This document shows, in pieces, positions 2,590 through 48,804 of a DNA stretch of 53,767 bases (position 1 is the stretch's first letter; every line of letters begins with the position of its first letter). Source of the DNA: a virus (taxonomy: Duplodnaviria > Caudoviricetes); the IMG/VR virus record IMGVR_UViG_3300021963_000162, positions 1-53,767 of that record; one strand, given 5' to 3'. A model generated the notes under the pieces. That model was not told where the DNA came from and did no database searches. It was given only the letters and a program-made list of their open reading frames with translations. The position numbers and the translations under genes were made by a program.

Positions 2590-3243
2590 ATGTTCAATTA
2601 TTGTCCTCCTATAAAATTACCAGACTTAACATCACAAACATTCCCAGACGGCAAACGATATTATGTAACGCCAGCTGGTTCAAGGTTGCCTTCTGTAACC
2701 ACAGTCATTGGTGCCCAAAAGAAAGCATCAATCATGGCTTGGCGCAAACGAGTTGGTGAAGAAGCAGCCAACAAAATCTCCAGACAGGCATCATCAAGAG
2801 GTACAAATGTTCATACATTATGTGAACGGTACCTAAATAATGATAAACTTGGCGATATTATGCCAGATGCTAAAGAAATGTTTGTTGCTTTGGTACCATA
2901 TCTGGACAGAATTGACAATATACATTATCAGGAACAGGCCTTGTGGTCTGAACAATTAGGGTTGGCTGGTCGTGTTGACTGTATTGCTGAGTTTGATGGT
3001 GTTCTATCAGTCATTGACTTTAAAACATCAAAAAGAATCAAACAGCGTGACGATATTTTAGATTATTTTTGGCAAGAAACAGCATACGCTTTGATGTATG
3101 AAGAATTGGTTGGTACACCTATCCACCAATTAGTTACTATCATGGCAATTGATAATGAACCGCCTGGATTGTTTATTGAAAAAACGGAAGACCACATAGA
3201 TGGTCTAGTAAAAGCAATACAATTTTACAAAGAACAAAAATGA
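2590..3243 (+). CDS. PD-(D/E)xK exonuclease (conserved in T4-like phages)
   Basis: PSVTTV, RGT.VH...E.YL, AGRVDCIAE, IDFKTS and Q..AY motifs. Confidence 0.85.
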   Translation: MFNYCPPIKLPDLTSQTFPDGKRYYVTPAGSRLPSVTTVIGAQKKASIMAWRKRVGEEAANKISRQASSRGTNVHTLCERYLNNDKLGDIMPDAKEMFVALVPYLDRIDNIHYQEQALWSEQLGLAGRVDCIAEFDGVLSVIDFKTSKRIKQRDDILDYFWQETAYALMYEELVGTPIHQLVTIMAIDNEPPGLFIEKTEDHIDGLVKAIQFYKEQK

Positions 3244-4145
3244 CAACTCCTGCAACAGGTCCAATATCTCTACTAGACTTACAAAATGAATTTGGTGGAA
3301 CCGCACCTATAAGTTTTAGTGAATACTATAGAGGTGGTGTATTTGTCAATCCACTTGTTTCTGGAGTACCTGCATCCGGTACTTTAGACTTAAATGCGTA
3401 TCGAGGTAAGCAAAAAATCACGGGAGGAAACAGTGGCATTTTAACATCAGGCACTTCATACACATTACCAATAACCAGTGGCACATCTATTAATGTTCTT
3501 GTAATTGGTGGCGGCGGTGGTGGCGGTGGCGGATCTGCTCGCCGAACAAACGCTGGATATTCGACTGGTGGCGGTGGCGGTGGATCAAGTACAGCTATGT
3601 ATGTATTAAATATTCCTGTGACGCCTGGTCAAACAGTCAATTATGTAATTGGTGCTGGAGGTGGCGGCGGCGGTGCCAGAGATGGAAGGTATACTTCAGG
3701 TTCAAATGGTGGCGCAGGTGGACTTACATCGTTTTCTGTGAATGGAGTAGTAAAAGCATCATCAGCAGGCGGCAGCGGAGGTATAAATTCACCAACAGGT
3801 ACTGGCGGTGCCGCAGGTAGTGTTGGTAGTAGTGTCGGAGTTGTGGCACGTGCTGGCACAGCAGGATATAATGCAGGTTCTGGCACAACAATAGGTGGCC
3901 AAGCTGCAAAAGGATTTACAATCACCGACACAGTTGGTTTAACAAGTATAACTTCGATTGTTGGATATGGTGTTGATGGTACTTTAGGTGGCAGATACGC
4001 TTCTGGTGTGCGTGGAACATCCGGTACAATTTATGGTGCTGGAGGTTCAGGTGGTGGCACTGCTCAAAGTGATGTTGAAAATTTCACAAATATGTATTCC
4101 AGTGCTGGTACAACAGGGGCAGTATTCATCTGGTGGGGTGTTTGA
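3240..4145 (+). CDS. Glycine-rich receptor-binding adhesin-like protein
   Basis: N-terminal GPISLLDLQNEFGG..PISFSEYYRGG fibre-attachment-like motif; many poly-Gly tracts; ends GAVFIWW. Confidence 0.65.
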   Translation: MTTPATGPISLLDLQNEFGGTAPISFSEYYRGGVFVNPLVSGVPASGTLDLNAYRGKQKITGGNSGILTSGTSYTLPITSGTSINVLVIGGGGGGGGGSARRTNAGYSTGGGGGGSSTAMYVLNIPVTPGQTVNYVIGAGGGGGGARDGRYTSGSNGGAGGLTSFSVNGVVKASSAGGSGGINSPTGTGGAAGSVGSSVGVVARAGTAGYNAGSGTTIGGQAAKGFTITDTVGLTSITSIVGYGVDGTLGGRYASGVRGTSGTIYGAGGSGGGTAQSDVENFTNMYSSAGTTGAVFIWWGV

Positions 4146-5737
4146 TGGCATTACCAACAGGTCAAATTAAATTCAGTGATTTAAATAGAGAACTCGGTAA
4201 ATCACTATCAACTACAATCAACCTAAATGATTCTATCGTCCAAGTGGTGGAGGGAAATCCATCCGATGGTGTTAGCATGTCCCAGTTGCGTGGAAAATCA
4301 AAAACTTATACCTCACTTATCGCAACAAATCAAAAAAATTTAAATATTTACAATACTTTGGTTGCACAAGGATGGGACAAACAATCGTATGTTACATTCA
4401 TAATAGAAAATGGTGTTTACATTTGGAGTGATAATATATCATTACCTGCTTTGACTTCTGGTGGCCCTTTTCCAAATGGATTGACTATAGTTAATAAAGG
4501 TTATATCATGGGTAAAGGTGGTGCCGGTGGTGGTCCAGCTGCTGCCGGTGAATCGGGAGGACCTGCAATATCTATAACTACAAATGTTATTATAGACAAT
4601 ACATACGCCAGTGCTTATATTGGTGGTGGAGGCGGAGGTGGTGGGTCTGGTGGTTATGGAGCATATAATTATGCCGGTGGCGGCGGCGGTGCTGGTGGCG
4701 GTGTTGGTGGTGCTGGGTTTGGATCGACCACATATGCAGGTGGATCTGGCGGCGCAATTGGTCAAGTTGGCGCAAATGGAGTTAATGGACAATCAACAAT
4801 ACGAGCGCAACAATCATATGGTGGTGGTGCTGGTGGTGGCGGCGGTTATCAACGAGTAGGCGGTGGCGGTGGTGGCCGAATTTTCCCTGGTACTAGTGGT
4901 GCAGGAGGTTATGAATACGCTCCAGTTAGTGCGCCAACCAAATACACCTATGCGGGTAAGGGTGGTGCCAGCAATCTGCCAGGAGAAAATTCTTATTTGG
5001 TTAATGGTGGAACCTCAGGATATTTGTCTGCTGGTGGCGGTGGTGGTTGGGGTGCTGCAGGCGGTCAAGGTGTTGCAGCAGGCGGTGCAGGCGGCAAAGC
5101 GGTTGAAACTAATAGTTATACTGTTACTTGGGTTAATAATAATACTACAAGAGTTTATGGTTCTGTTGGTGGAGTGTTCAAAAATCCATTTTCTTCATAT
5201 AGTTTTACTACATCTGGTGTCGATGCTGGTGGTGGTGGACCAATATCAGCACCAGGAAAAATTAAGCCTACATCAGGAAGTTTTGTAGGCCAGTCAGTTT
5301 CTGTTCCTGTTGCGTTAACACTGACAAGTTATTGGGCTGATAGTAATGCTGGATCACAAACATATAATTCACCAAGAGATTCGGTTTTTGTGTCTTCTAC
5401 AACAAACTGGACAGTTACAGACCTTATCAATTTGGGAATTAATCATACCAATGTTCACACAACATCAACTACCAGAACAGTAAGTCTTGTATTTGACGTA
5501 GACGAATCTATGAATGCTGGATATTATATTATTACTAGGTCAGGCGCAGTCACATCTATATCTCTGTGGGCCACTGGTACATATACAGGGGTATACTCAA
5601 CACGACAAGTTGCTGGCGGCCGTCAAAGAAATATATCTGGTTCTTGGACATTGCCAATATTAAATGATAATCAACTTTTAGTGCCTGCTTGGGGTGATGG
5701 TACTGGCACAAATAACCTTAGATGGTCAATAACCTAA
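4145..5737 (+). CDS. gp38-type (T2/T6-like) polyglycine adhesin with an extra C-terminal domain
   Basis: N-terminal I.FSDLN.ELG...SMSQLRGKS; LTIVNKGYIMGKGGAGG, GGPAI, IGGGGGGG and GGGGGWGAAGG motifs; about 185 aa extension after RVYGSV. Confidence 0.7.
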   Translation: MALPTGQIKFSDLNRELGKSLSTTINLNDSIVQVVEGNPSDGVSMSQLRGKSKTYTSLIATNQKNLNIYNTLVAQGWDKQSYVTFIIENGVYIWSDNISLPALTSGGPFPNGLTIVNKGYIMGKGGAGGGPAAAGESGGPAISITTNVIIDNTYASAYIGGGGGGGGSGGYGAYNYAGGGGGAGGGVGGAGFGSTTYAGGSGGAIGQVGANGVNGQSTIRAQQSYGGGAGGGGGYQRVGGGGGGRIFPGTSGAGGYEYAPVSAPTKYTYAGKGGASNLPGENSYLVNGGTSGYLSAGGGGGWGAAGGQGVAAGGAGGKAVETNSYTVTWVNNNTTRVYGSVGGVFKNPFSSYSFTTSGVDAGGGGPISAPGKIKPTSGSFVGQSVSVPVALTLTSYWADSNAGSQTYNSPRDSVFVSSTTNWTVTDLINLGINHTNVHTTSTTRTVSLVFDVDESMNAGYYIITRSGAVTSISLWATGTYTGVYSTRQVAGGRQRNISGSWTLPILNDNQLLVPAWGDGTGTNNLRWSIT

Positions 5738-6313: not shown

Positions 6314-6856
6314 TTGAAAAAATTGAGTTTATTTTTGGCCACTTTGGTCGTGAGTGTTTCAGCAATGGCACAAGGTTATGCATCATTGGAGTATTCTGAT
6401 GAAACTAATCGTGCAACAGACGCATCTAACATTAAAGAAGCGTTGGTTGTAGGTAATAAAGTTGGTTCTACTGACTATAGCCTTAAAATGGAAAACAGCC
6501 AAACTGCATTTGGAAGTGGTTCACTTTCACAAGGTTTGGAAGTTCGTGTAAAACAATCTATCGGTGCTTTCTATGTTGGCGGCCGTTTGGGTGAAAAAGT
6601 TTCTAGTTCATCACACTTCAGCCACTATGCAGTTGATGCTGGTGTTAAGTTCCCATTGGTTGCTGGTTTTACTGGTGATGTTGGTGGTCGTTACCGCAAC
6701 GCATTTGATACTGCAAATGAATATCAAACAACCCGTGTTCATGCAGCAGTTGGTTACGATTTAACCAAACAAGACAAAGTTGCAGTTCGTTGGAGCCGTT
6801 CATACGGTGACGAAGAAAAAGATGCATGGCGTCTACAATATACTCGTAGTTTCTAA
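6314..6856 (+). CDS. Outer-membrane beta-barrel (porin-like) protein with signal peptide
   Basis: AGGAG SD with TTG start; MKK plus hydrophobic core plus AMA signal peptide; alternating beta-strands; C-terminal WRLQYTRSF beta-signal. Confidence 0.75.
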   Translation: MKKLSLFLATLVVSVSAMAQGYASLEYSDETNRATDASNIKEALVVGNKVGSTDYSLKMENSQTAFGSGSLSQGLEVRVKQSIGAFYVGGRLGEKVSSSSHFSHYAVDAGVKFPLVAGFTGDVGGRYRNAFDTANEYQTTRVHAAVGYDLTKQDKVAVRWSRSYGDEEKDAWRLQYTRSF

Positions 6857-7259: not shown

Positions 7260-7748
7260 ATGAACAAGTTATTGTCATCAATAATACTTTCAACTTTAGT
7301 TTTTTTACCTTTAACATCACAACAACAAACATTTTCGTTTGAATCTGCCATATCACAAGACATAGGAAAACAAGTACTATGCATGGCAAAAAATATCTAC
7401 TATGAAGCCGCAAGTGAATCCTTTGAAGGCAAACTCGCTGTAGCACAGGTTACAATGAACCGTGTAAATAGTAATAAATTCCCATCTAATGTTTGCGATG
7501 TTGTTTACCAAAAAACAGGCAGCACATACCAATTCAGTTGGGTTGGTGAAAATGTTAGTCCTGTTAGAAACAAATATGCATGGGAAGAATGCCTAATTGT
7601 TGCAAAAAAGGCCTTGACAGAAAAACGCCTACATGATACAATCTACAAAACAAAGTCAATGTACTATCACAACACATCGGTAAATCCGGCGTGGAAGTTA
7701 AAGTATGTTGCAAAGATAGGTAACCATTTATTTTATACGAGAACTTGA
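7260..7748 (+). CDS. Cell-wall hydrolase, SleB / Hydrolase_2 family
   Basis: CMAKNIYYEAASE..EGKLAVAQVTMNRV, C.VVYQ, QFSW and IGNHLFY motifs. Confidence 0.9.
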   Translation: MNKLLSSIILSTLVFLPLTSQQQTFSFESAISQDIGKQVLCMAKNIYYEAASESFEGKLAVAQVTMNRVNSNKFPSNVCDVVYQKTGSTYQFSWVGENVSPVRNKYAWEECLIVAKKALTEKRLHDTIYKTKSMYYHNTSVNPAWKLKYVAKIGNHLFYTRT

Positions 7749-7749
7749 A

Positions 7750-7974
7750 ATGCCAACAAAGAATGAGATTAGTGAATTCAGTGAAATGATTGAAAAGAAG
7801 TTTACAACTGGTAATGATGTAAATATTATGGACACAATCGTTCACTACTGTGAAACAACTGGTATGGAAATTGATGTGGCTTCTACTCTAATATCTCCTG
7901 CATTAAAGGCCAAGATTAGAGAAGAAGCCGAAAACTTGAACATGATGAAAAAGAGTGCTAAACTACCACTATGA
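7750..7974 (+). CDS. gp33: Late transcription co-activator gp33
   Basis: 74 aa, MD.IV.YCE..G.EID....LIS..LK.KI..EA..LN motif; synteny with gp59 and gp32. Confidence 0.85.
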   Translation: MPTKNEISEFSEMIEKKFTTGNDVNIMDTIVHYCETTGMEIDVASTLISPALKAKIREEAENLNMMKKSAKLPL

Positions 7975-8552
7975 TTGAATTAGTTGAAGTAATAACACCA
8001 GAACAAAAATTGTTGGTGAAGAATATTATTGAAAACAATCATTCTTATGTACCAACAAATTCATCTGTTGGTCGCAGGATTGATTGGTTAATTTACCACG
8101 ATGATGGTTCATCTTTATTTCCTGAATGTATTGGTATGATAGGCATTGGTTCATCGGTCTACCCACCACCAAAAGATATATTGAGATATCTTGGTCTATC
8201 TAAGGAAGAATACAAAAATAAATTCAATTCAATTGCCAATAATTGGCGGTTCTGTTTCAGTAAATCTATTAAGAATGCTGGAACACAAACACTCAAACAG
8301 TTGAGGTTAAAGTCAGCTGATGCTTGGAAAAGAAGATATGGTGATGATTTAACACACATCATTACCTTTGTTGGTGCAGGTAAAAATGGAGCAGTTTATC
8401 TAGCGGATAATTGGAGTCAAATAGGTGAAACTGCCGGTTTACCAAAACATAAATCTTCTTCCATGAAATGGAACAACAGCACCGAATTGAAAGAACTTTT
8501 TGTTAAACCTACAGGTGAAAATAAAAAGATAATTTTTATTAAAAAGATTTGA
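7971..8552 (+). CDS. DUF4338 (Druantia DruA / Mom-like GNAT-fold) domain protein
   Basis: HSYV...VGRR..WLI, IGMIGIGS, ANNWRF, W..RYGD....ITFV, GAVY.ADNW..IGETAG and KIIFIK motif series. Confidence 0.7.
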   Translation: MIELVEVITPEQKLLVKNIIENNHSYVPTNSSVGRRIDWLIYHDDGSSLFPECIGMIGIGSSVYPPPKDILRYLGLSKEEYKNKFNSIANNWRFCFSKSIKNAGTQTLKQLRLKSADAWKRRYGDDLTHIITFVGAGKNGAVYLADNWSQIGETAGLPKHKSSSMKWNNSTELKELFVKPTGENKKIIFIKKI

Positions 8553-8559
8553 GTATCTT

Positions 8560-9294
8560 ATGCCAAGTAAAGAATATTATGAAGGACATGATATGGAGAA
8601 AAACAACATTCTCCATAAACACCTAGTTGAATTTTTTAAATTCGATGAAATAACTACAGATGGTTCAACTAGAACTAAGTCAGATATTATCGGGTTAAAA
8701 AATAAAAAAAGAGTCAACATATCTGTAAAAAATGCCTCAGGTAAAAATACACAGGTACATTTAACGACATTGAAAAAACTTGCAGAAGATTTGAGTATGC
8801 CTAAAGGTGTTGTTTCTAAATTAACTCTTTGGTTTGGTACAAATGATTTTGAAGAATTTAAAAGTTGGTCAAAAGATATACAATTAACAGAATATGAATA
8901 TGACCATGCCCGACTATGTAGTGAGAATATTCCAAATTGGAAAAATGTTGAAACTTGGTTCAATGAAAACAATAAAAACATTTCCAGTTTACTATTGGAA
9001 AGTTTAAGTGGTGATGAAAAATCAGAATACTTGGTTTGGGTAAACAAGCGCCAGAAAAATGTTCAAATAGTTAGTATACCTAAATTGATTAAATATATTG
9101 AAGAACATTGTGTTTGGATAACTATGCCAAGTGGAACAATTCTAAGGTGTATTACACCAAACAATAAAGCAATAATGTGGTTACAAATGAAAGGTAATCG
9201 CACAGATGATGGTTACAATAGATGTCCACAATTTCATTTGGTAGAAAATTGGCCGGAAAATCTTATATTAAATAAAGATATTATAAACCTATGA
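8560..9294 (+). CDS. Type II restriction-endonuclease-like PD-(D/E)xK nuclease
   Basis: TKSDI-x10-ISVK-x6-TQVH and LQMKG...QF motifs, reminiscent of MspI/HinP1I-like enzymes. Confidence 0.55.
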   Translation: MPSKEYYEGHDMEKNNILHKHLVEFFKFDEITTDGSTRTKSDIIGLKNKKRVNISVKNASGKNTQVHLTTLKKLAEDLSMPKGVVSKLTLWFGTNDFEEFKSWSKDIQLTEYEYDHARLCSENIPNWKNVETWFNENNKNISSLLLESLSGDEKSEYLVWVNKRQKNVQIVSIPKLIKYIEEHCVWITMPSGTILRCITPNNKAIMWLQMKGNRTDDGYNRCPQFHLVENWPENLILNKDIINL

Positions 9295-9911
9295 GTTTCA
9301 CTTTTGAGGAAGGGTCTGGCTTTTCAGCCTATGCTTTATTCAATGCAGTCAAATTACATTTTACCTCTGATAGTTATGATTATTTTAAGTATGGCGGTAA
9401 AACCAATGTTTCAAGAGACAACTTTGCCCAGCGAAAAGATAAGTATACCTTCTACAGGTTATCCCGCAATTACAAACTAGATGAGTTACGGGATTTCTAT
9501 GTTGCCAATTTTCTGGTTAAATCTGTAAACTGGATTGGCGATATTGCCAATGCAGAAGGTGAAGAAAACTACAAAAACTGGCAAAAAAGAAACCAGAGCT
9601 TGACATATCAGTTCGAACAAGATATAATGGGACTACTTAACGCAACACAATCACCAAATGAAATGTTGATGGTTGAAAATGGACAATACCCATTGTTGTT
9701 GAGAGAAGTGATGCAAGGCACTATCAATATTGAAACGATGGTTATACTGAATGATATTATGAATTTCTTTCCAATGTGGTCAAAAAAGATATCAGATACG
9801 ATTGTCTGGCCAGAATATGAAAAGAAATGTTTGAGTTATCAACCATTCATCAATTACGATAAAAATAAATTTGTAAGTATTTTGAAAGAAAGTATCAAAG
9901 ATTATGCATAA
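9291..9911 (+). CDS. gp59: Helicase loader gp59
   Basis: AY.LF.AVKLHFTSDSYDYFKYGGK, F..RKDKY.F motifs; synteny. Confidence 0.9.
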   Translation: MSFTFEEGSGFSAYALFNAVKLHFTSDSYDYFKYGGKTNVSRDNFAQRKDKYTFYRLSRNYKLDELRDFYVANFLVKSVNWIGDIANAEGEENYKNWQKRNQSLTYQFEQDIMGLLNATQSPNEMLMVENGQYPLLLREVMQGTINIETMVILNDIMNFFPMWSKKISDTIVWPEYEKKCLSYQPFINYDKNKFVSILKESIKDYA

Positions 9912-45814: not shown

Positions 45815-46159
45815 ATGGCAGCTGGATATCAAGAATTATTTTTGGAACAAGGTACCGATTTTGTCACATCAATAACATTAGATGATGCAAACGGTAATCC
45901 TTTTGACTTAACTGATTTCGTTGCTAAAGGCCAAATCAGAAAATCATATTATTCCACCAATACAACCGGTGAATTTATAATTACTATTATTGAACCAGAA
46001 ACAGACGGAACAATATCTTTAGGTATTAGTTCTGCTAACACAGCAAACATACCAGCAGGACGATATGTATATGATGTTGCTATTAAAAGTTCATCAAATA
46101 ATGTGACTAGAGTTTTAGAAGGAATTGTAAACGTTTTGCCTAGAGTTACTGTATTTTAA
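45815..46159 (+). CDS. Conserved small Ig-like virion protein
   Basis: L.LEQG.DF, Q.RKSY.S, GRYVYDV and RVLEG.V.V.P.VT motifs; ACTAAATA upstream. Confidence 0.75.
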   Translation: MAAGYQELFLEQGTDFVTSITLDDANGNPFDLTDFVAKGQIRKSYYSTNTTGEFIITIIEPETDGTISLGISSANTANIPAGRYVYDVAIKSSSNNVTRVLEGIVNVLPRVTVF

Positions 46160-46168
46160 GGGTCTACT

Positions 46169-46702
46169 ATGACTAGAGTAACAGTAAATGCGCCAACTAC
46201 AATCAAAGTACGCACTGGTAGTCAACAGACAACCACGAAGGTACAATCAATCAATTACGGAACAACTAAATTAGCAGATGCTTCCGACTTAAGAATACCA
46301 CCATTCTCTCGTACTGGTGATTTTGTTGCGTACAATGCAAACACAAATGGGTTTGAAGTCACTCCAACACCAAAAATAAATGGTGATTTAGTTCCATCTG
46401 AAAATGAACTGTATGATTTAGGTGCACCAGATATGCGTTTTAAGTCTTTGTTTCTAAGTGGCAATACAATTACACTAGGAACAATGGCCATTAAAGCTGA
46501 TGCAACATCAGGTTCTATTGCATTTGTACCTCCAACTTCAATTGATGTTCCACATCCAACAGCAATCGTTATTACACAACAAGGTGGTATTACAACCGCA
46601 AATACAACTGATGGTGTATTGAATCCTGTTGTATTGCAACAAGTTATATCAAATTCAGTATCATATGTTGCCTTTACTGGTTCTGATTCAGGGTTCTTTT
46701 AA
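46169..46702 (+). CDS. Virion fibre-associated protein
   Basis: GDLVPS....YDLG....RFKSLFLSG.TI.LG fibre motif; ends DSGFF. Confidence 0.65.
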   Translation: MTRVTVNAPTTIKVRTGSQQTTTKVQSINYGTTKLADASDLRIPPFSRTGDFVAYNANTNGFEVTPTPKINGDLVPSENELYDLGAPDMRFKSLFLSGNTITLGTMAIKADATSGSIAFVPPTSIDVPHPTAIVITQQGGITTANTTDGVLNPVVLQQVISNSVSYVAFTGSDSGFF

Positions 46703-46911
46703 TGGCAAATACAACAATTCAGATATTAAGGTCATATGCTAACACGGCACCATTAAGTTTGGCTGACGGTGAATTGGCATATTCTTTTGTATCGAATCAA
46801 CTTTTCATTGGTAATAGTAATAATGCGGTTATACCTGTTGCAGGTAACGGATACATTACACAAATTGTTACAGAAACATTACCCGTAGAATTTGACGGCG
46901 GCAGTTTTTAA
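46702..46911 (+). CDS. 69-aa fibre connector-like protein
   Basis: MANTTIQILRS...L..GELAY N-motif and C-terminal DGGSF; TAATG coupling. Confidence 0.7.
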   Translation: MANTTIQILRSYANTAPLSLADGELAYSFVSNQLFIGNSNNAVIPVAGNGYITQIVTETLPVEFDGGSF

Positions 46912-46956
46912 TAAATACAGGATAATTATAACATCTAACCCTTATAAGGAAGAGAA

Positions 46957-48804
46957 ATGGCAAATACATCAATTTTAATTAAACGTTCTAGTAGTACAGG
47001 ACGTCCTAGTTCACTGAAAGCTGGTGAATTAGCGTATTCATACCAATCAAATACGTTATTTTTTGGTACAGCTGACGGTACTGGTGCCTTTAATATTGGT
47101 GGCCAATTCTATACATCCACTGTAGATTCTGCAACCGCAGCTAATGTTGCCTCAACATTAGTTAAACGGGATGAGAATAACGGTTTCTTTGGTGCATTAT
47201 ATGGTAACGCAAATAGTGCTACCAAATTATTAACCTCAAGAAACTTTGACATTTCAGGTGGTGATATTACTGCCTCAGCAGTTGGTTTTGATGGTACCGC
47301 TGCTGTTACATTAAATGCCTCTCTTAATACAGTTTCTGGTCTAAGTGCCGGCGTATATGGTGGTGCATCAGTTGTACCTATTGTTACTGTTGCAGCAAAC
47401 GGCCGTATTATGGCCATTGCCAACTCAACTACAATCTCTACTGCGTTGGGTATTGCTGGTGATTCTGGTACAGACACAGTTAACCTTGCATCCGACACAC
47501 TAACAGTTGCTGGCGGCGCAGGTTTAACATCAGCAGTTACAGATAACACAATTACAATTAATGTTGATAACACTGTTGTTCGTGCAAATACTGCTTCTTT
47601 GAATCAAACTATTGATGGTAACCTAACCGTCAGTGGTAACTTGAATGTTCTTGGTACAGAAACTATTGTTAATGTAAGCACATTCGAAGTTACCGACCCA
47701 TTAATTTACTTGGCTGGCGGAAACTATGTAAGTGATGCAGTCGATATTGGTTTTGTTGGTAACTACAACAACGGTTCTGCTAACCTACATGCCGGTTTGA
47801 TTCGTCATGCAGGTGATAAAGACTTCTACATTTTTGACAGTTACAATGTTGAACCAGATAGTAATGTTATTGACATTTCAGGTAATGGTTTCCATGTTGC
47901 AAACTTACATGCAAACATACTTGCTACAGCAATCACAACATCTACATTAGAAGTTTCTACTGTTGCAAAAATTGCTGAGTTGCAATTAACTACAGATTTA
48001 GCAGTATCACAAGGTGGTACTGGCGCAAGTTCATTCACAAATGGTGCAATTCTTATTGGTTCTGGAACAGGTGCATTATCAACACTTGCAAACAGCACAT
48101 ATACTGCAACAGGCAGTGGCGCATCAAACAGTACAGTTTCTTCTTTGACTGTTGACGATTATGGTCGTGTGACTGCTGCAACATTCAGTTCAATTTCCGG
48201 TCTAACAGTCAGCCAAGGTGGTACAGGACAATCTTCATTTACTGCTGGTCAATTAGTTATTGGTGATGGCACCAGCGGATTGAAACAGATTGCTAATGCA
48301 GGTTATACATTAACTGGTACATTAGGTGCTGCTAAGACAATTACTTCTCTAACAGTTGATGACTATGGTCGTGTAACAGCCGCAACTGCTGCTGACATTT
48401 CCGGTCTAACAGTATCACAAGGCGGTACTGGTGCATCATCATTGTCTGCTGGCCAGATGTTGGTTGGCAATGGTACTGGTGCAATTCAAACAGTTGCTAA
48501 TGTTACTTACACATTGACTGGTACATTAGGTGCTGCAAAGACAATCACATCATTGACTGTTGACGCATACGGCCGTGTAAGTGCTGCAACTGCTTCAGAT
48601 ATCTCTGGATTGACTGTTGCACAAGGCGGTACAGGTGCTTCTACATTTACTACAAACGGTATCGTTTATGGTTCAGGCACAAGTGCAATGGGTGTTACTG
48701 CTGCGGCCGGTACATCAGACCAAACATGGTCTAACCAGATACTTACAACAACCAATGCAGGTGTTCCAGTATGGACAACAACACTTGATGGAGGTCAATT
48801 CTAA
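46957..48804 (+). CDS. Tail fibre protein with 68-aa repeats
   Basis: MANTSILIKRS...L..GELAY N-motif; QGGTG and TVD.YGRV repeats; ends DGGQF. Confidence 0.75.
   Translation: MANTSILIKRSSSTGRPSSLKAGELAYSYQSNTLFFGTADGTGAFNIGGQFYTSTVDSATAANVASTLVKRDENNGFFGALYGNANSATKLLTSRNFDISGGDITASAVGFDGTAAVTLNASLNTVSGLSAGVYGGASVVPIVTVAANGRIMAIANSTTISTALGIAGDSGTDTVNLASDTLTVAGGAGLTSAVTDNTITINVDNTVVRANTASLNQTIDGNLTVSGNLNVLGTETIVNVSTFEVTDPLIYLAGGNYVSDAVDIGFVGNYNNGSANLHAGLIRHAGDKDFYIFDSYNVEPDSNVIDISGNGFHVANLHANILATAITTSTLEVSTVAKIAELQLTTDLAVSQGGTGASSFTNGAILIGSGTGALSTLANSTYTATGSGASNSTVSSLTVDDYGRVTAATFSSISGLTVSQGGTGQSSFTAGQLVIGDGTSGLKQIANAGYTLTGTLGAAKTITSLTVDDYGRVTAATAADISGLTVSQGGTGASSLSAGQMLVGNGTGAIQTVANVTYTLTGTLGAAKTITSLTVDAYGRVSAATASDISGLTVAQGGTGASTFTTNGIVYGSGTSAMGVTAAAGTSDQTWSNQILTTTNAGVPVWTTTLDGGQF
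48010..48636 (+). repeat. About three tandem 204-nt (68-aa) imperfect repeats
   Basis: The QGGTG codons start at 48010, 48214, 48418 and 48622. Confidence 0.85.

Follow-up and report, generated by a model that had tools for sequence, protein, structure and literature searches.

A predicted HinP1I/MspI-fold nuclease gene at the gp33/gp59 junction of uncultured T4-like phages and the depletion of ACGT in its carriers

The DNA analysed here, called the window throughout, is a viral record of 53,767 bases (IMG/VR record IMGVR_UViG_3300021963_000162), estimated to be 32% complete. Its source is a T4-like phage, aquatic and uncultured; among cultured phages the nearest gp59 proteins, those of cyanomyoviruses, reach no more than about 40% identity to its own. 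An insert of 1320 bp separates its gp33 and gp59 genes and carries two genes, indicated below as gene 1 and gene 2: the former codes for a DruA-family (DUF4338) protein with a GNAT fold, the latter for a predicted Type IIP restriction endonuclease with the fold of HinP1I and MspI. Genomes carrying gene 2 are depleted in the tetramer ACGT, which, judging from this depletion, is most probably the target of the enzyme. Genome composition, on which both activity and specificity are argued, suggests that gene 2 is probably an active ACGT-specific nuclease, located on a mobile cassette, and that the carrier protects its own DNA by loss of the sites.

The states of the gp33/gp59 junction were counted by distinct contig. 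Both genes are present in 23 contigs and in the window, gene 1 only in 11 and gene 2 only in 4, and one further contig has gene 2 with its upstream side cut off. A survey seeded on gp59 mapped the neighbours of this gene in 80 viral contigs, chosen as the best by gp59 match out of 589 confirmed. These loci comprise 51 empty junctions, 14 with both genes, 2 with gene 1 only and 10 with other inserts; the rest are one locus with gene 2, whose upstream side is cut off by the contig end, and 2 uninformative ones.

The median frequency of ACGT per locus is 0.00 per kb where gene 2 stands alone (n=4), 0.47 where both genes are found (n=23), 1.85 where only gene 1 is found (n=11) and 1.45 in the rest (n=63), this last class being made up of the 51 empty loci, the 10 with other inserts and the 2 uninformative ones, one of which (L084) has no upstream side. 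When carriers of gene 2 were compared with non-carriers, ACGT ranked at the top of all 136 tetramers (Mann-Whitney p 2.4e-8; 5.7e-5 for the runner-up), with p values that overstate the independence of loci sharing kinship. The gene-2-only class really amounts to two lineages, since three of its contigs (L125-L127) are near-identical. As the loci are related, the cassette was masked and the comparison made again separately in each of three gp59 identity classes, after removal of two loci lacking a gp59 match. The medians for carriers and non-carriers were 0.40 vs 1.47, 0.93 vs 1.45 and 0.60 vs 1.43 in the three classes, and in 20,000 stratified permutations the observed ACGT deficit was never matched. 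The sequences of genes 1 and 2, all copies summed, contain 0 ACGT in 37,410 bp.

Whole contigs were evaluated by comparing the observed ACGT count with the Markov-expected one. No site is found in two contigs with gene 2 only, G001, of 65.8 kb (92 expected), and G002, of 12.9 kb (15.6 expected), which are independent of each other, with 66-71% DNA identity and gene 2 proteins 54% identical. The window, with both genes, has 8 sites for 66 expected; the corresponding values are 38/70 in G005, where gene 2 is present and the side of gene 1 is truncated, and 24/35 in G011, with both genes. For contigs with an empty junction the ratios are 45/61 in G007, the nearest to the window, 47/45 in G008 and 495/510 in the complete genome G010, and for the complete genome G009, with gene 1 only, 119/379. 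All of the 23 loci with both genes keep at least one ACGT, with a minimum of 0.12 per kb.

Comparison with close relatives indicates how the sites disappeared. Over 4418 aligned columns (94.3% identity) between the window and the empty locus L037, substitutions in the window have abolished all 6 ACGT sites of L037 without creating a new one; similarly, 8 of 8 sites of the empty locus L039 are destroyed. The sites lost with respect to these two relatives all differ in flanking context. In 9368 nt aligned with G007, private ACGT sites number 0 in the window and 9 in G007, with 1 shared, which places ACGT at the top of 129 tetramers, although the p value of 0.0039 would not survive correction for that many tetramers, a point to be held against the argument. 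Seven of the 8 losses that could be evaluated with respect to G007 are synonymous. The deficit runs across the whole window, except for a cluster of four of the 8 remaining sites at 46131-47056 (no strand), located from the site list and from 5-kb bins at 46.1-47.1 kb; the other four sites are at 3848, 5496, 17284 and 29622. Residual ACGT sites show no flank bias (44/148 vs 164/587 within palindromic hexamers, p 0.68). From the ACGT deficit in carriers it can be argued that the enzyme of gene 2 works and would be a danger to the DNA of the phage itself.

Other tetramers were considered as well. CGCG was rejected as target of gene 2, because its avoidance is lineage-wide: it is missing from the window (0/18), but loci without the cassette are equally depleted (23/152), and several carriers contain it. 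Self-protection through the absence of another 4-bp palindrome was discarded too, as all 16 occur in carrier loci. As a separate observation, CGCG is nearly absent whatever the state of the cassette, also in G009 (0/80) and G010 (1/90), and GATC and CATG are at about 0.3-0.6 of expectation throughout the lineage; together with CGCG, they probably reflect restriction pressure from the hosts.

The product of gene 2 (8560-9294, + strand; 244 residues) was modelled by AlphaFold2 on 35 homologues, with a pLDDT score of 90 and a predicted TM score (pTM) of 0.87. The model shares with HinP1I, from end to end, a two-sheet fold that MspI also has (for HinP1I, Foldseek E 2.3e-10, TM 0.66/0.66, 244 vs 247 residues). 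VIA-align places HinP1I first (Z 16.4, root-mean-square deviation 3.3, 208 residues aligned), MspI second (Z 11.3) and the PD-(D/E)xK homing enzyme I-Ssp6803I third (Z 8.3); Holliday-junction resolvases and other PD-(D/E)xK nucleases score below HinP1I and MspI. The first-pass annotation, made from the letters alone, had pointed to a KSD-x-ISVK-x-Q nuclease core in this protein, and the core is borne out by conservation: in the arrangement K40-S41-D42 ... S55-V56-K57 ... Q65, equivalent to SD-X12-SVK, residues K40, D42, S55, K57 and Q65 are invariant across the 35 homologues. When 38 family members are considered, down to 22% identity, K40, D42, S55 and K57 are still invariant and E13 is nearly so. 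The reading frame is intact in every carrier examined.

HinP1I (G^CGC) and MspI (C^CGG) are described in the available portions of PMC7026639 as monomeric 4-bp cutters, with SD-X11-EAK as the motif of the related HhaI. The catalytic motif of gene 2 is close to that of HhaI, with a non-acidic residue before the lysine. Enzymes of the HinP1I/MspI group combine a core of the form (S)D ... x-x-K with an N-terminal glutamate, for which gene 2 offers S41-D42, S55-V56-K57 and E13. Gene 2 resembles the solved proteins of this group (PDB 2fkc, 1ynm, 1sa3) in whole-length fold and in size, and probably in acting on a 4-bp palindrome with a central CG; an ACGT target would fit this structural family, since its solved members cut GCGC and CCGG. 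Unlike these bacterial enzymes, gene 2 is found in a lytic T4-like phage, with no methyltransferase gene adjacent and with ACGT as its likely target, and it has neither detectable sequence similarity to the solved proteins nor a match to Pfam R-HINP1I. The sequence link to the two families is transitive only, because only distant relatives of gene 2 match the profiles: among 40 that were scanned, one passes R-HINP1I (PF11463; 26 bits, cut-off 25), and two R-HINP1I matches and one MspI match (Endonuc-MspI, PF09208) fall below threshold.

The gene 2 family is small, with 37 clusters in a set of 5.8 billion proteins and 88 representatives retrieved from 1.84 billion by profile search. A pattern search of 185,579 species genomes for cellular relatives gave 26 matches, none of which was confirmed by tblastn. 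Some distant relatives are accompanied by methylase genes. In L139, L140 and L141 (27-29% identity to gene 2) the nuclease gene overlaps the start of a N6_N4 methylase gene (E about 1e-46), and in L138 a methylase of the same N6/N4 type is located 1.2 kb upstream. In the 8 contigs L130-L137 (41-47% identity) a conserved ORF (open reading frame) of about 418 residues follows the gene 2 relative; it contains FSPPYFD and gives weak methylase matches. SPPY or DPPY is a mark of amino-methyltransferases. Since distant viral relatives sit beside methylase genes, the family is taken to consist of genuine restriction enzymes. These Type II pairs (L139-L141, probably also L130-L137) are like the window in being on viral contigs and in having, by profile search, a nuclease of the same family; they differ in that their nuclease gene overlaps or directly precedes a N6/N4 methyltransferase gene, a slot that is empty in the window, where a GNAT gene lies upstream instead. 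In L135, a 347-residue homing endonuclease gene (2894-3937; phrog_655 E 2.4e-46, with NUMOD3) stands directly upstream of the gene 2 relative and its methylase-like partner.

In agreement with what had been noticed at first reading, no methyltransferase gene adjoins the two genes in the window, and none was found among its 41 other ORFs, which include replication, baseplate and tail proteins; a search of the window with PF01555 and tblastn with both types of methylase partner also gave no match. An adjacent methylase has been lost from the lineage of the window's gene 2, or was never present in it.

The four genes gp33, gene 1, gene 2 and gp59 run head to tail on the + strand, from 7750 to 9911. 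The left flank is gp33, for the late-transcription coactivator (7750-7974, +; Pfam Trans_coact E 1.4e-17; phrog_254), and the right flank gp59, for the helicase loader (9291-9911, +; Pfam T4_Gp59_N and T4_Gp59_C; phrog_269 E 2.2e-58). Gene 1 (7971-8552, +; 193 residues) overlaps gp33, and gene 2 overlaps gp59, through ATGA stop/start overlaps, and a gap of 7 nt separates gene 1 from gene 2. The wider neighbourhood, by Pfam scan, is composed of a cell-wall hydrolase, gp33, gp59, a 5' nucleotidase and gp32. A two-gene insert between gp33 and gp59 was what the first reading had proposed, and both ORFs and families confirm it. No match to the region, gene 1 or gene 2 was found among 50,697 phage records, searched for cultured relatives and from which the window's own record was possibly excluded. 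Contigs of the metatranscriptome X21 do not cover 7504-9315, which says nothing either way.

In the 51 empty loci, of the 80 surveyed, gp33 and gp59 adjoin each other, separated by -6 to +23 bp. The two nearest relatives of the window, L037 (gp59 98% identical) and L039 (97%), are both empty, and the junction of L037 reads ...CCACTATGAGTTT... By blastn, the window aligns to L037 at 93.1% identity up to position 7974 and at 95.75% from 9289; as the two alignments share only the 6-bp CTATGA, the difference is a clean indel of 1320 bp (7975-9294, +). The same joint is found in the public run X7, in which one contig connects 7968 to 9289, skipping 1320 bases, with 6 ambiguous bases. The empty site expected from precise excision, predicted at first reading, therefore exists. 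Contigs bearing the cassette are also present in run X7, so both alleles circulate in one community.

The hexamer CTATGA, reported by the first-pass annotation at both ends of the cassette, is indeed present at 7969-7974 (+), as the final gp33 codon plus the ATGA stop/start overlap, and at 9289-9294 (+), made up there of the final codon of gene 2 and the ATGA shared with the start of gp59; it is not a conserved repeat, since in all 3 other cassette lineages compared the two ends share ATGA only. The left and right ends are TTATGA and ATATGA in L041, ATATGA and CTATGA in L044, and ATATGA and TTATGA in L104, so that TTATGA or ATATGA is found in relatives on the left, and ATATGA, TTATGA or CTATGA on the right. 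Because the ends vary in this way, the additional CT, shared beyond the two functional ATGA overlaps, is regarded as due to chance (about 1 in 16). Flanks of the window and of the empty L037 are 93-100% identical right up to the insertion point, and neither a co-conversion tract nor a dip of identity beside the junction was detected in bins of 100 columns between these two sequences.

The gp33/gp59 junction is a hotspot for mobile and accessory genes. Among the other inserts at this position are three distinct homing endonuclease genes (phrog_314, E 4e-27, 2e-21 and 2e-7), one of them with NUMOD3, and a gene for a 2OG-Fe(II) oxygenase (PF13759, E 5.9e-21); homing endonuclease genes of the GIY-YIG type occupy the slot in L079, L080, L081, L098 and L108-L110. 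The cultured Synechococcus phage S-PRM1 (L176) has a 130-residue gene annotated as 'methyltransferase' between gp33 and gp59 (3094-3486), which is unrelated to gene 1 (hhalign probability 0.2%) and without a relative in PDB. Loss of an inserted gene was also observed. In L012 gene 2 has been removed by a deletion between the 9-bp repeats TAAACCAAT and TAAACAAAT, and gene 1 of this locus ends with the final four codons of gene 2, joined at the 9-bp repeat.

Optional inserts are not confined to this junction. Others of about 750 bp are found between gp59 and the 5' nucleotidase gene (L012, L016, L020, L024, L056, L058 and others), and one of about 600 bp, in L008, between the 5' nucleotidase gene and gp32; the gp33-gp59-gp32 region appears overall as a mosaic of accessory slots. 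In L033 (1920-2499) gene 1 matches as two overlapping pieces, which suggests a frameshift, maybe due to decay or to an assembly error. Similarly, in L024/L122 (2323-3020) gp59 matches in two overlapping pieces, again suggestive of a frameshift, and is possibly a decayed copy or an assembly error.

The two genes are not an obligate pair. At first reading they had been proposed as a candidate restriction-modification pair, a view held there to be refuted by independent occurrence in relatives, and such occurrence is found. Gene 2 only is found, between gp33 and gp59, in L123 and in the near-identical L125-L127, and G001 has no match to gene 1 over its 65.8 kb. Conversely, G009 (176,024 bases), which is the contig of L022, contains gene 1 only and gene 2 nowhere. 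Between lineages, gene 1 is conserved at 77-93%, gp59 at 60-75% and gene 2 at 55-72%.

Gene 1 had been described at first reading as DUF4338-like, and this holds. Pfam DruA (PF14236) matches the protein with E 2.8e-9 and 37 bits (cut-off 27), residues 3-128 falling on positions 51-174 of a profile of 297, and all of 27 members of the gene 1 family pass this cut-off. A GNAT fold is supported by the AlphaFold2 model (pLDDT 81): Foldseek gave 63 matches at E<=0.001, every one of those listed being a GNAT acyl-CoA N-acyltransferase, with Mom (8bv8) at rank 8. DUF4338 is termed a GNAT domain in the consulted portion of PMC10853773. A profile built on gene 1 (A3) found nothing significant among PDB sequences.

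The link between gene 1 and Mom, also put forward at first reading, proved weak. VIA-align places Mom nominally first (Z 13.5, 151 residues), with AAC(6')-Ib and others within one Z unit, and the structural scores to RimI, AAC(6') and Naa50/60 equal that to Mom. Alignment of the gene 1 and Mu Mom profiles by hhalign is weak (probability 31%, E 5e-4, 89 columns), and Pfam Mom (PF25680) gives no match to gene 1 at E<=1; 5 of 27 relatives match it below threshold, the best at E 0.002 (cut-off 27.1 bits). According to the accessible text of PMC13219725, Mom is a GNAT which uses Gly-tRNA to modify deoxyadenosine in SAS contexts; R111, S124, D149 and R151 are essential and Y159 important, and activity requires an insertion located at about residues 175-209. 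In the same weak alignment, Mom D149 falls on D125 of gene 1 and Y159 on the invariant Y143, within a motif common to both (GKNGAVYLADNWSQIGE vs GRAGVVYQASNFDFIGS), and the counterpart of S124 would be K101 and that of R151 G135. Between strands 149-153 and 187-192 of gene 1 lies a conserved basic segment of 33 residues (154-186), with pLDDT <50 at 161-181. Like the insertion of Mom, it lies between the last two strands, and by position it may be equivalent to it. Gene 1 shares with the phage-encoded Mom of Mu the GNAT fold and the motif around Y159, and differs from it in a structural score tied with those of generic GNATs and, as far as the weak alignment goes, at the essential S124 and R151, which are not matched. 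It is assigned here to DruA, not to Mom, and a nucleic-acid substrate is plausible.

With respect to DruA of Druantia type I, gene 1 passes the PF14236 cut-off; unlike it, gene 1 covers only positions 51-174 of the 297 in the profile, has no DruB-E nearby and gives no Druantia match in PADLOC. The family far exceeds that of gene 2 in size (37 clusters for gene 2, at least 1064 for gene 1); its short form (about 190-200 residues) is almost wholly viral and widespread, and members occur in other replication-gene neighbourhoods without gene 2. In one fused form, P0243 (344 residues, on a 3.5-kb contig), a gene-1-like domain (57% identical) is joined in frame to a C5 cytosine DNA methylase tail, which covers Pfam positions 255-323 of 324; its cluster contains 20 member sequences. 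A second fused form, P0244 (2 found), looks like a chimeric assembly and was set aside. DruA-like proteins are mentioned for six Synechococcus phages, with no function given, in the available part of the Phold preprint. No literature on the function of DUF4338 or DruA was found in a search that left most subscription journals outside; the passages retrieved cover DruE and DruH or merely name DruA.

Two side observations concern relatives of gene 1. The 9.7-kb viral contig L035 has two DruA-family genes (22-912 and 3944-4705) amid UvdE, clamp-loader, glycosyltransferase and dUTPase genes. In BFVD, the model of gene 1 matches a domain in several long proteins (399-713 residues) named 'endonuclease-like' or 'homing endonuclease' (E 1e-4 to 3e-3), from Campylobacter phage CP21, Pseudomonas phage PA5oct and uncultured myoviruses.

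In the mechanism proposed, the insert would be an accessory element in the mobile-gene hotspot of the gp33/gp59 junction, with gene 2 in the same direction of transcription as the neighbouring replication genes and no cognate methyltransferase alongside. Inside the infected cell, gene 2 would cut DNA that contains ACGT, namely the chromosome of the host and the genomes of co-infecting relatives (1.5 to 3 sites per kb). The genome of the carrier would largely escape, ACGT having been removed by point substitutions, mostly synonymous, and it is proposed that the carrier survives because its own genome has lost the site. The nuclease might thereby free nucleotides from host DNA and shut out rival phages, and exclusion of rivals would favour the inheritance of the cassette, much as for homing endonucleases. 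Gene 1 would be a separate, widespread phage gene of the DruA/GNAT type, often travelling with gene 2 and not required by it; it may be a nucleic-acid modifier giving partial cover, or have an unrelated function. The idea of a restriction-modification pair, advanced at first reading, is retained in part: the fold of gene 2 and the depletion of ACGT are in keeping with it, but self-protection appears to be achieved at least partly by loss of ACGT sites, not by modification.

Several points count against this proposal, in addition to the kinship of the loci. Gene 2 has no Pfam match at E<=1 and no NCBIfam or PADLOC family, and its sequence profiles (A1, A4) do not reach HinP1I in PDB, where nothing significant was found; matches of A4 to RuBisCO, with E above 1, were dismissed as chance. 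The deficit is only mild in some of the genomes holding both genes: G011 (24/35) is no lower than the empty G007 (45/61), and L018 has 1.9 ACGT per kb. If gene 2 is an ACGT cutter, G011 and L018 would need another protection, a recent arrival of the gene or a different specificity. G009 is depleted (119/379) without gene 2. Relatives paired with a methylase-like gene give a mixed picture, L130 (3/16) and L131 (3/21) being depleted and L135 (25/27) not. G001 has a N6/N4 methylase about 40 kb from gene 2. Finally, the carrier contigs are all fragments (32% for the window, 39% for G001), and a methyltransferase or a copy of gene 1 may be located elsewhere in these genomes. As for G009, gene 2 may have been present there once, or this phage may be under attack by phages bearing gene 2.

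We give limited credence to the possibility of a non-canonical restriction-modification pair with gene 1 as its modification half, a Mom-like GNAT that shields phage DNA from gene 2; such shielding can coexist with site loss as a partial or transitional protection. It would explain why the genes lie 7 nt apart in 23 contigs and in the window, and how an unprotected cutter, whose entry would be self-destructive, could enter a backbone such as that of G007, with about 2 ACGT per kb, gene 1 being the only other gene of the insert. The resemblance to Mom, which modifies deoxyadenosine in SAS contexts and whose insertion is essential (available text of PMC13219725), extends to the GNAT fold, the motif GxxGxVYxA(D/S)N(W/F)xxIG and, by position, the insertion between the last two strands, and P0243 fuses a gene-1-like domain to a C5 DNA methylase tail. 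Both gene-2-only lineages are at zero (0/92 and 0/15.6), and all 23 loci with both genes keep at least one ACGT, a difference that may be expected from a protective gene 1 and also from longer residence of gene 2. Against shielding by gene 1 stand the 4 contigs with gene 2 and no gene 1, none being matched over 65.8 kb in one of them, the 11 with gene 1 and no gene 2, one a complete genome, and the larger family of gene 1 (at least 1064 vs 37 clusters), found in other contexts without gene 2. Equivalents of Mom S124 and R151 are not clear in the weak alignment (31%), Pfam Mom gives no match, and the residual ACGT sites lack the flank bias expected from a context-dependent modifier. Moreover, about 88% of the expected sites are gone from the window, although full protection by gene 1 would leave no pressure to purge them. 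Another reading of gene 1, as an ordinary GNAT acetyltransferase acting on proteins or small molecules, or as a decoy of the host's Druantia DruA, that neighbours gene 2 only because both use the same hotspot, also seems rather doubtful. It accords with the scores to RimI, AAC(6') and Naa50/60, equal to that of Mom, with a family that is nearly all viral, lies in other genome contexts and has two copies in L035, and with the many unrelated inserts at the junction, including the 130-residue gene of S-PRM1. The conserved basic insertion and the Mom-like motif instead favour a nucleic-acid substrate, and P0243 ties a gene-1-like domain to a DNA methylase. Gene 1 is also more conserved (77-93%) than gp59 (60-75%) and accompanies gene 2 in 23 contigs, and for a decoy no Druantia partner gene or PADLOC match was found.

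Two further explanations concern gene 2 and the deficit itself. The deficit could be due to restriction systems of the hosts and be unrelated to gene 2, which would be inactive or have another target. CGCG, GATC and CATG are indeed depleted lineage-wide, whatever the state of the cassette (CGCG 0/80 in G009, 1/90 in G010), G009 is ACGT-depleted without gene 2, and G011 is only mildly depleted with both genes. This explanation is nonetheless improbable: ACGT is the sole tetramer strongly tied to gene 2, the tie persists in three backbone strata with the cassette masked, the closest relative keeps 10 ACGT in an aligned 9.4 kb where the window has 1, two distantly related gene-2-only contigs are both at zero, and catalytic-type residues are conserved, with an intact frame, in every carrier examined. 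We judge it very improbable that gene 2 encodes a free-standing homing endonuclease, one that would recognise a long, rare sequence close to the junction in phages without the cassette and spread the insert by double-strand-break repair. Homing endonuclease genes of the GIY-YIG type at the same junction in relatives, the alternation of presence and absence among close relatives, with both alleles in one run, the lack of a methyltransferase adjoining gene 2 and the third structural rank of I-Ssp6803I (Z 8.3) count in favour of homing. Gene 2 has however the size of HinP1I (244 vs 247 residues), without an extra DNA-binding module; a bare tetramer has been purged genome-wide in every flanking context, as expected for a short site and a genome-wide action; the flanks are 93-100% identical to L037 at the junction, with no co-conversion tract or protective polymorphism; and distant relatives of gene 2 are paired with methyltransferases, as are ordinary restriction enzymes.

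A more elaborate version, which we put forward only tentatively, orders the four junction states as stages of a cycle, the insert being a self-spreading analogue of restriction-modification in which a GNAT of the DruA/Mom type replaces the methyltransferase. Gene 1 would cover ACGT well enough for gene 2 to enter a naive, ACGT-rich genome; imperfect cover would then drive the loss of ACGT genome-wide, after which gene 1 would become dispensable, giving gene-2-only genomes with zero ACGT. Were gene 2 lost instead, gene 1 could persist as a stand-alone immunity against gene-2-bearing rivals, one such genome being still partly depleted. Throughout such a cycle, the nuclease would both degrade host DNA and exclude co-infecting relatives. 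More plainly, depletion may grow with the residence time of gene 2, and gene 1 may be an unrelated neighbour in the hotspot.

If gene 2 acts as an ACGT nuclease from which carriers escape by site loss, it can be compared with several known systems. Homing endonuclease genes of the Seg/Mob types in T4-like phages are similar to the insert as optional genes between conserved ones, and relatives have such genes at the same junction; as with them, a nuclease damaging rival genomes would favour its own inheritance. T4 itself presumably carries a gene of homing endonuclease type in the 32-59 region. Gene 2 differs from the Seg/Mob genes in its restriction-enzyme fold, in having no GIY-YIG, HNH or NUMOD, and in a composition signal that suggests a 4-bp target cut genome-wide. 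Solitary Type II restriction endonucleases of prokaryotic genomes, as described in the available portion of PMC3488263, also have no adjacent methyltransferase; those are cellular. When phages avoid restriction sites, the enzymes of their hosts are classically held responsible, according to the accessible part of PMC6286503; the loss of a palindrome is common to both situations, but here the avoided site tracks a nuclease gene of the phage itself.

Site loss in a phage is normally read as the mark of a host enzyme, and here the missing site follows the phage's own nuclease gene. If the interpretation is correct, viral discrimination between self and non-self would be obtained in a different way, the target being removed from the genome instead of the DNA being modified. 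In the literature search, which left most subscription journals outside, no paper was found that links a solitary restriction enzyme carried by a phage to the loss of that enzyme's sites. The four natural genotypes at one junction also offer a way to ask whether a GNAT of the DruA family acts on DNA. DruA has no known function, though a widespread bacterial defence system has a component of that name, and the phage relatives of DruA form at least 1064 clusters; if gene 1 protects DNA, the insert would be an analogue of restriction-modification built on an acyl or aminoacyl transferase.

Two other ORFs of the window are worth a mention. An antisense ORF of 156 residues (8577-9047, - strand) is nested wholly within gene 2 and is probably spurious. 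Another, of 180 residues (6314-6856, + strand), has no PHROG family; it has a signal-peptide-like start and a C-terminal phenylalanine and resembles, by eye, a small outer-membrane beta-barrel protein.

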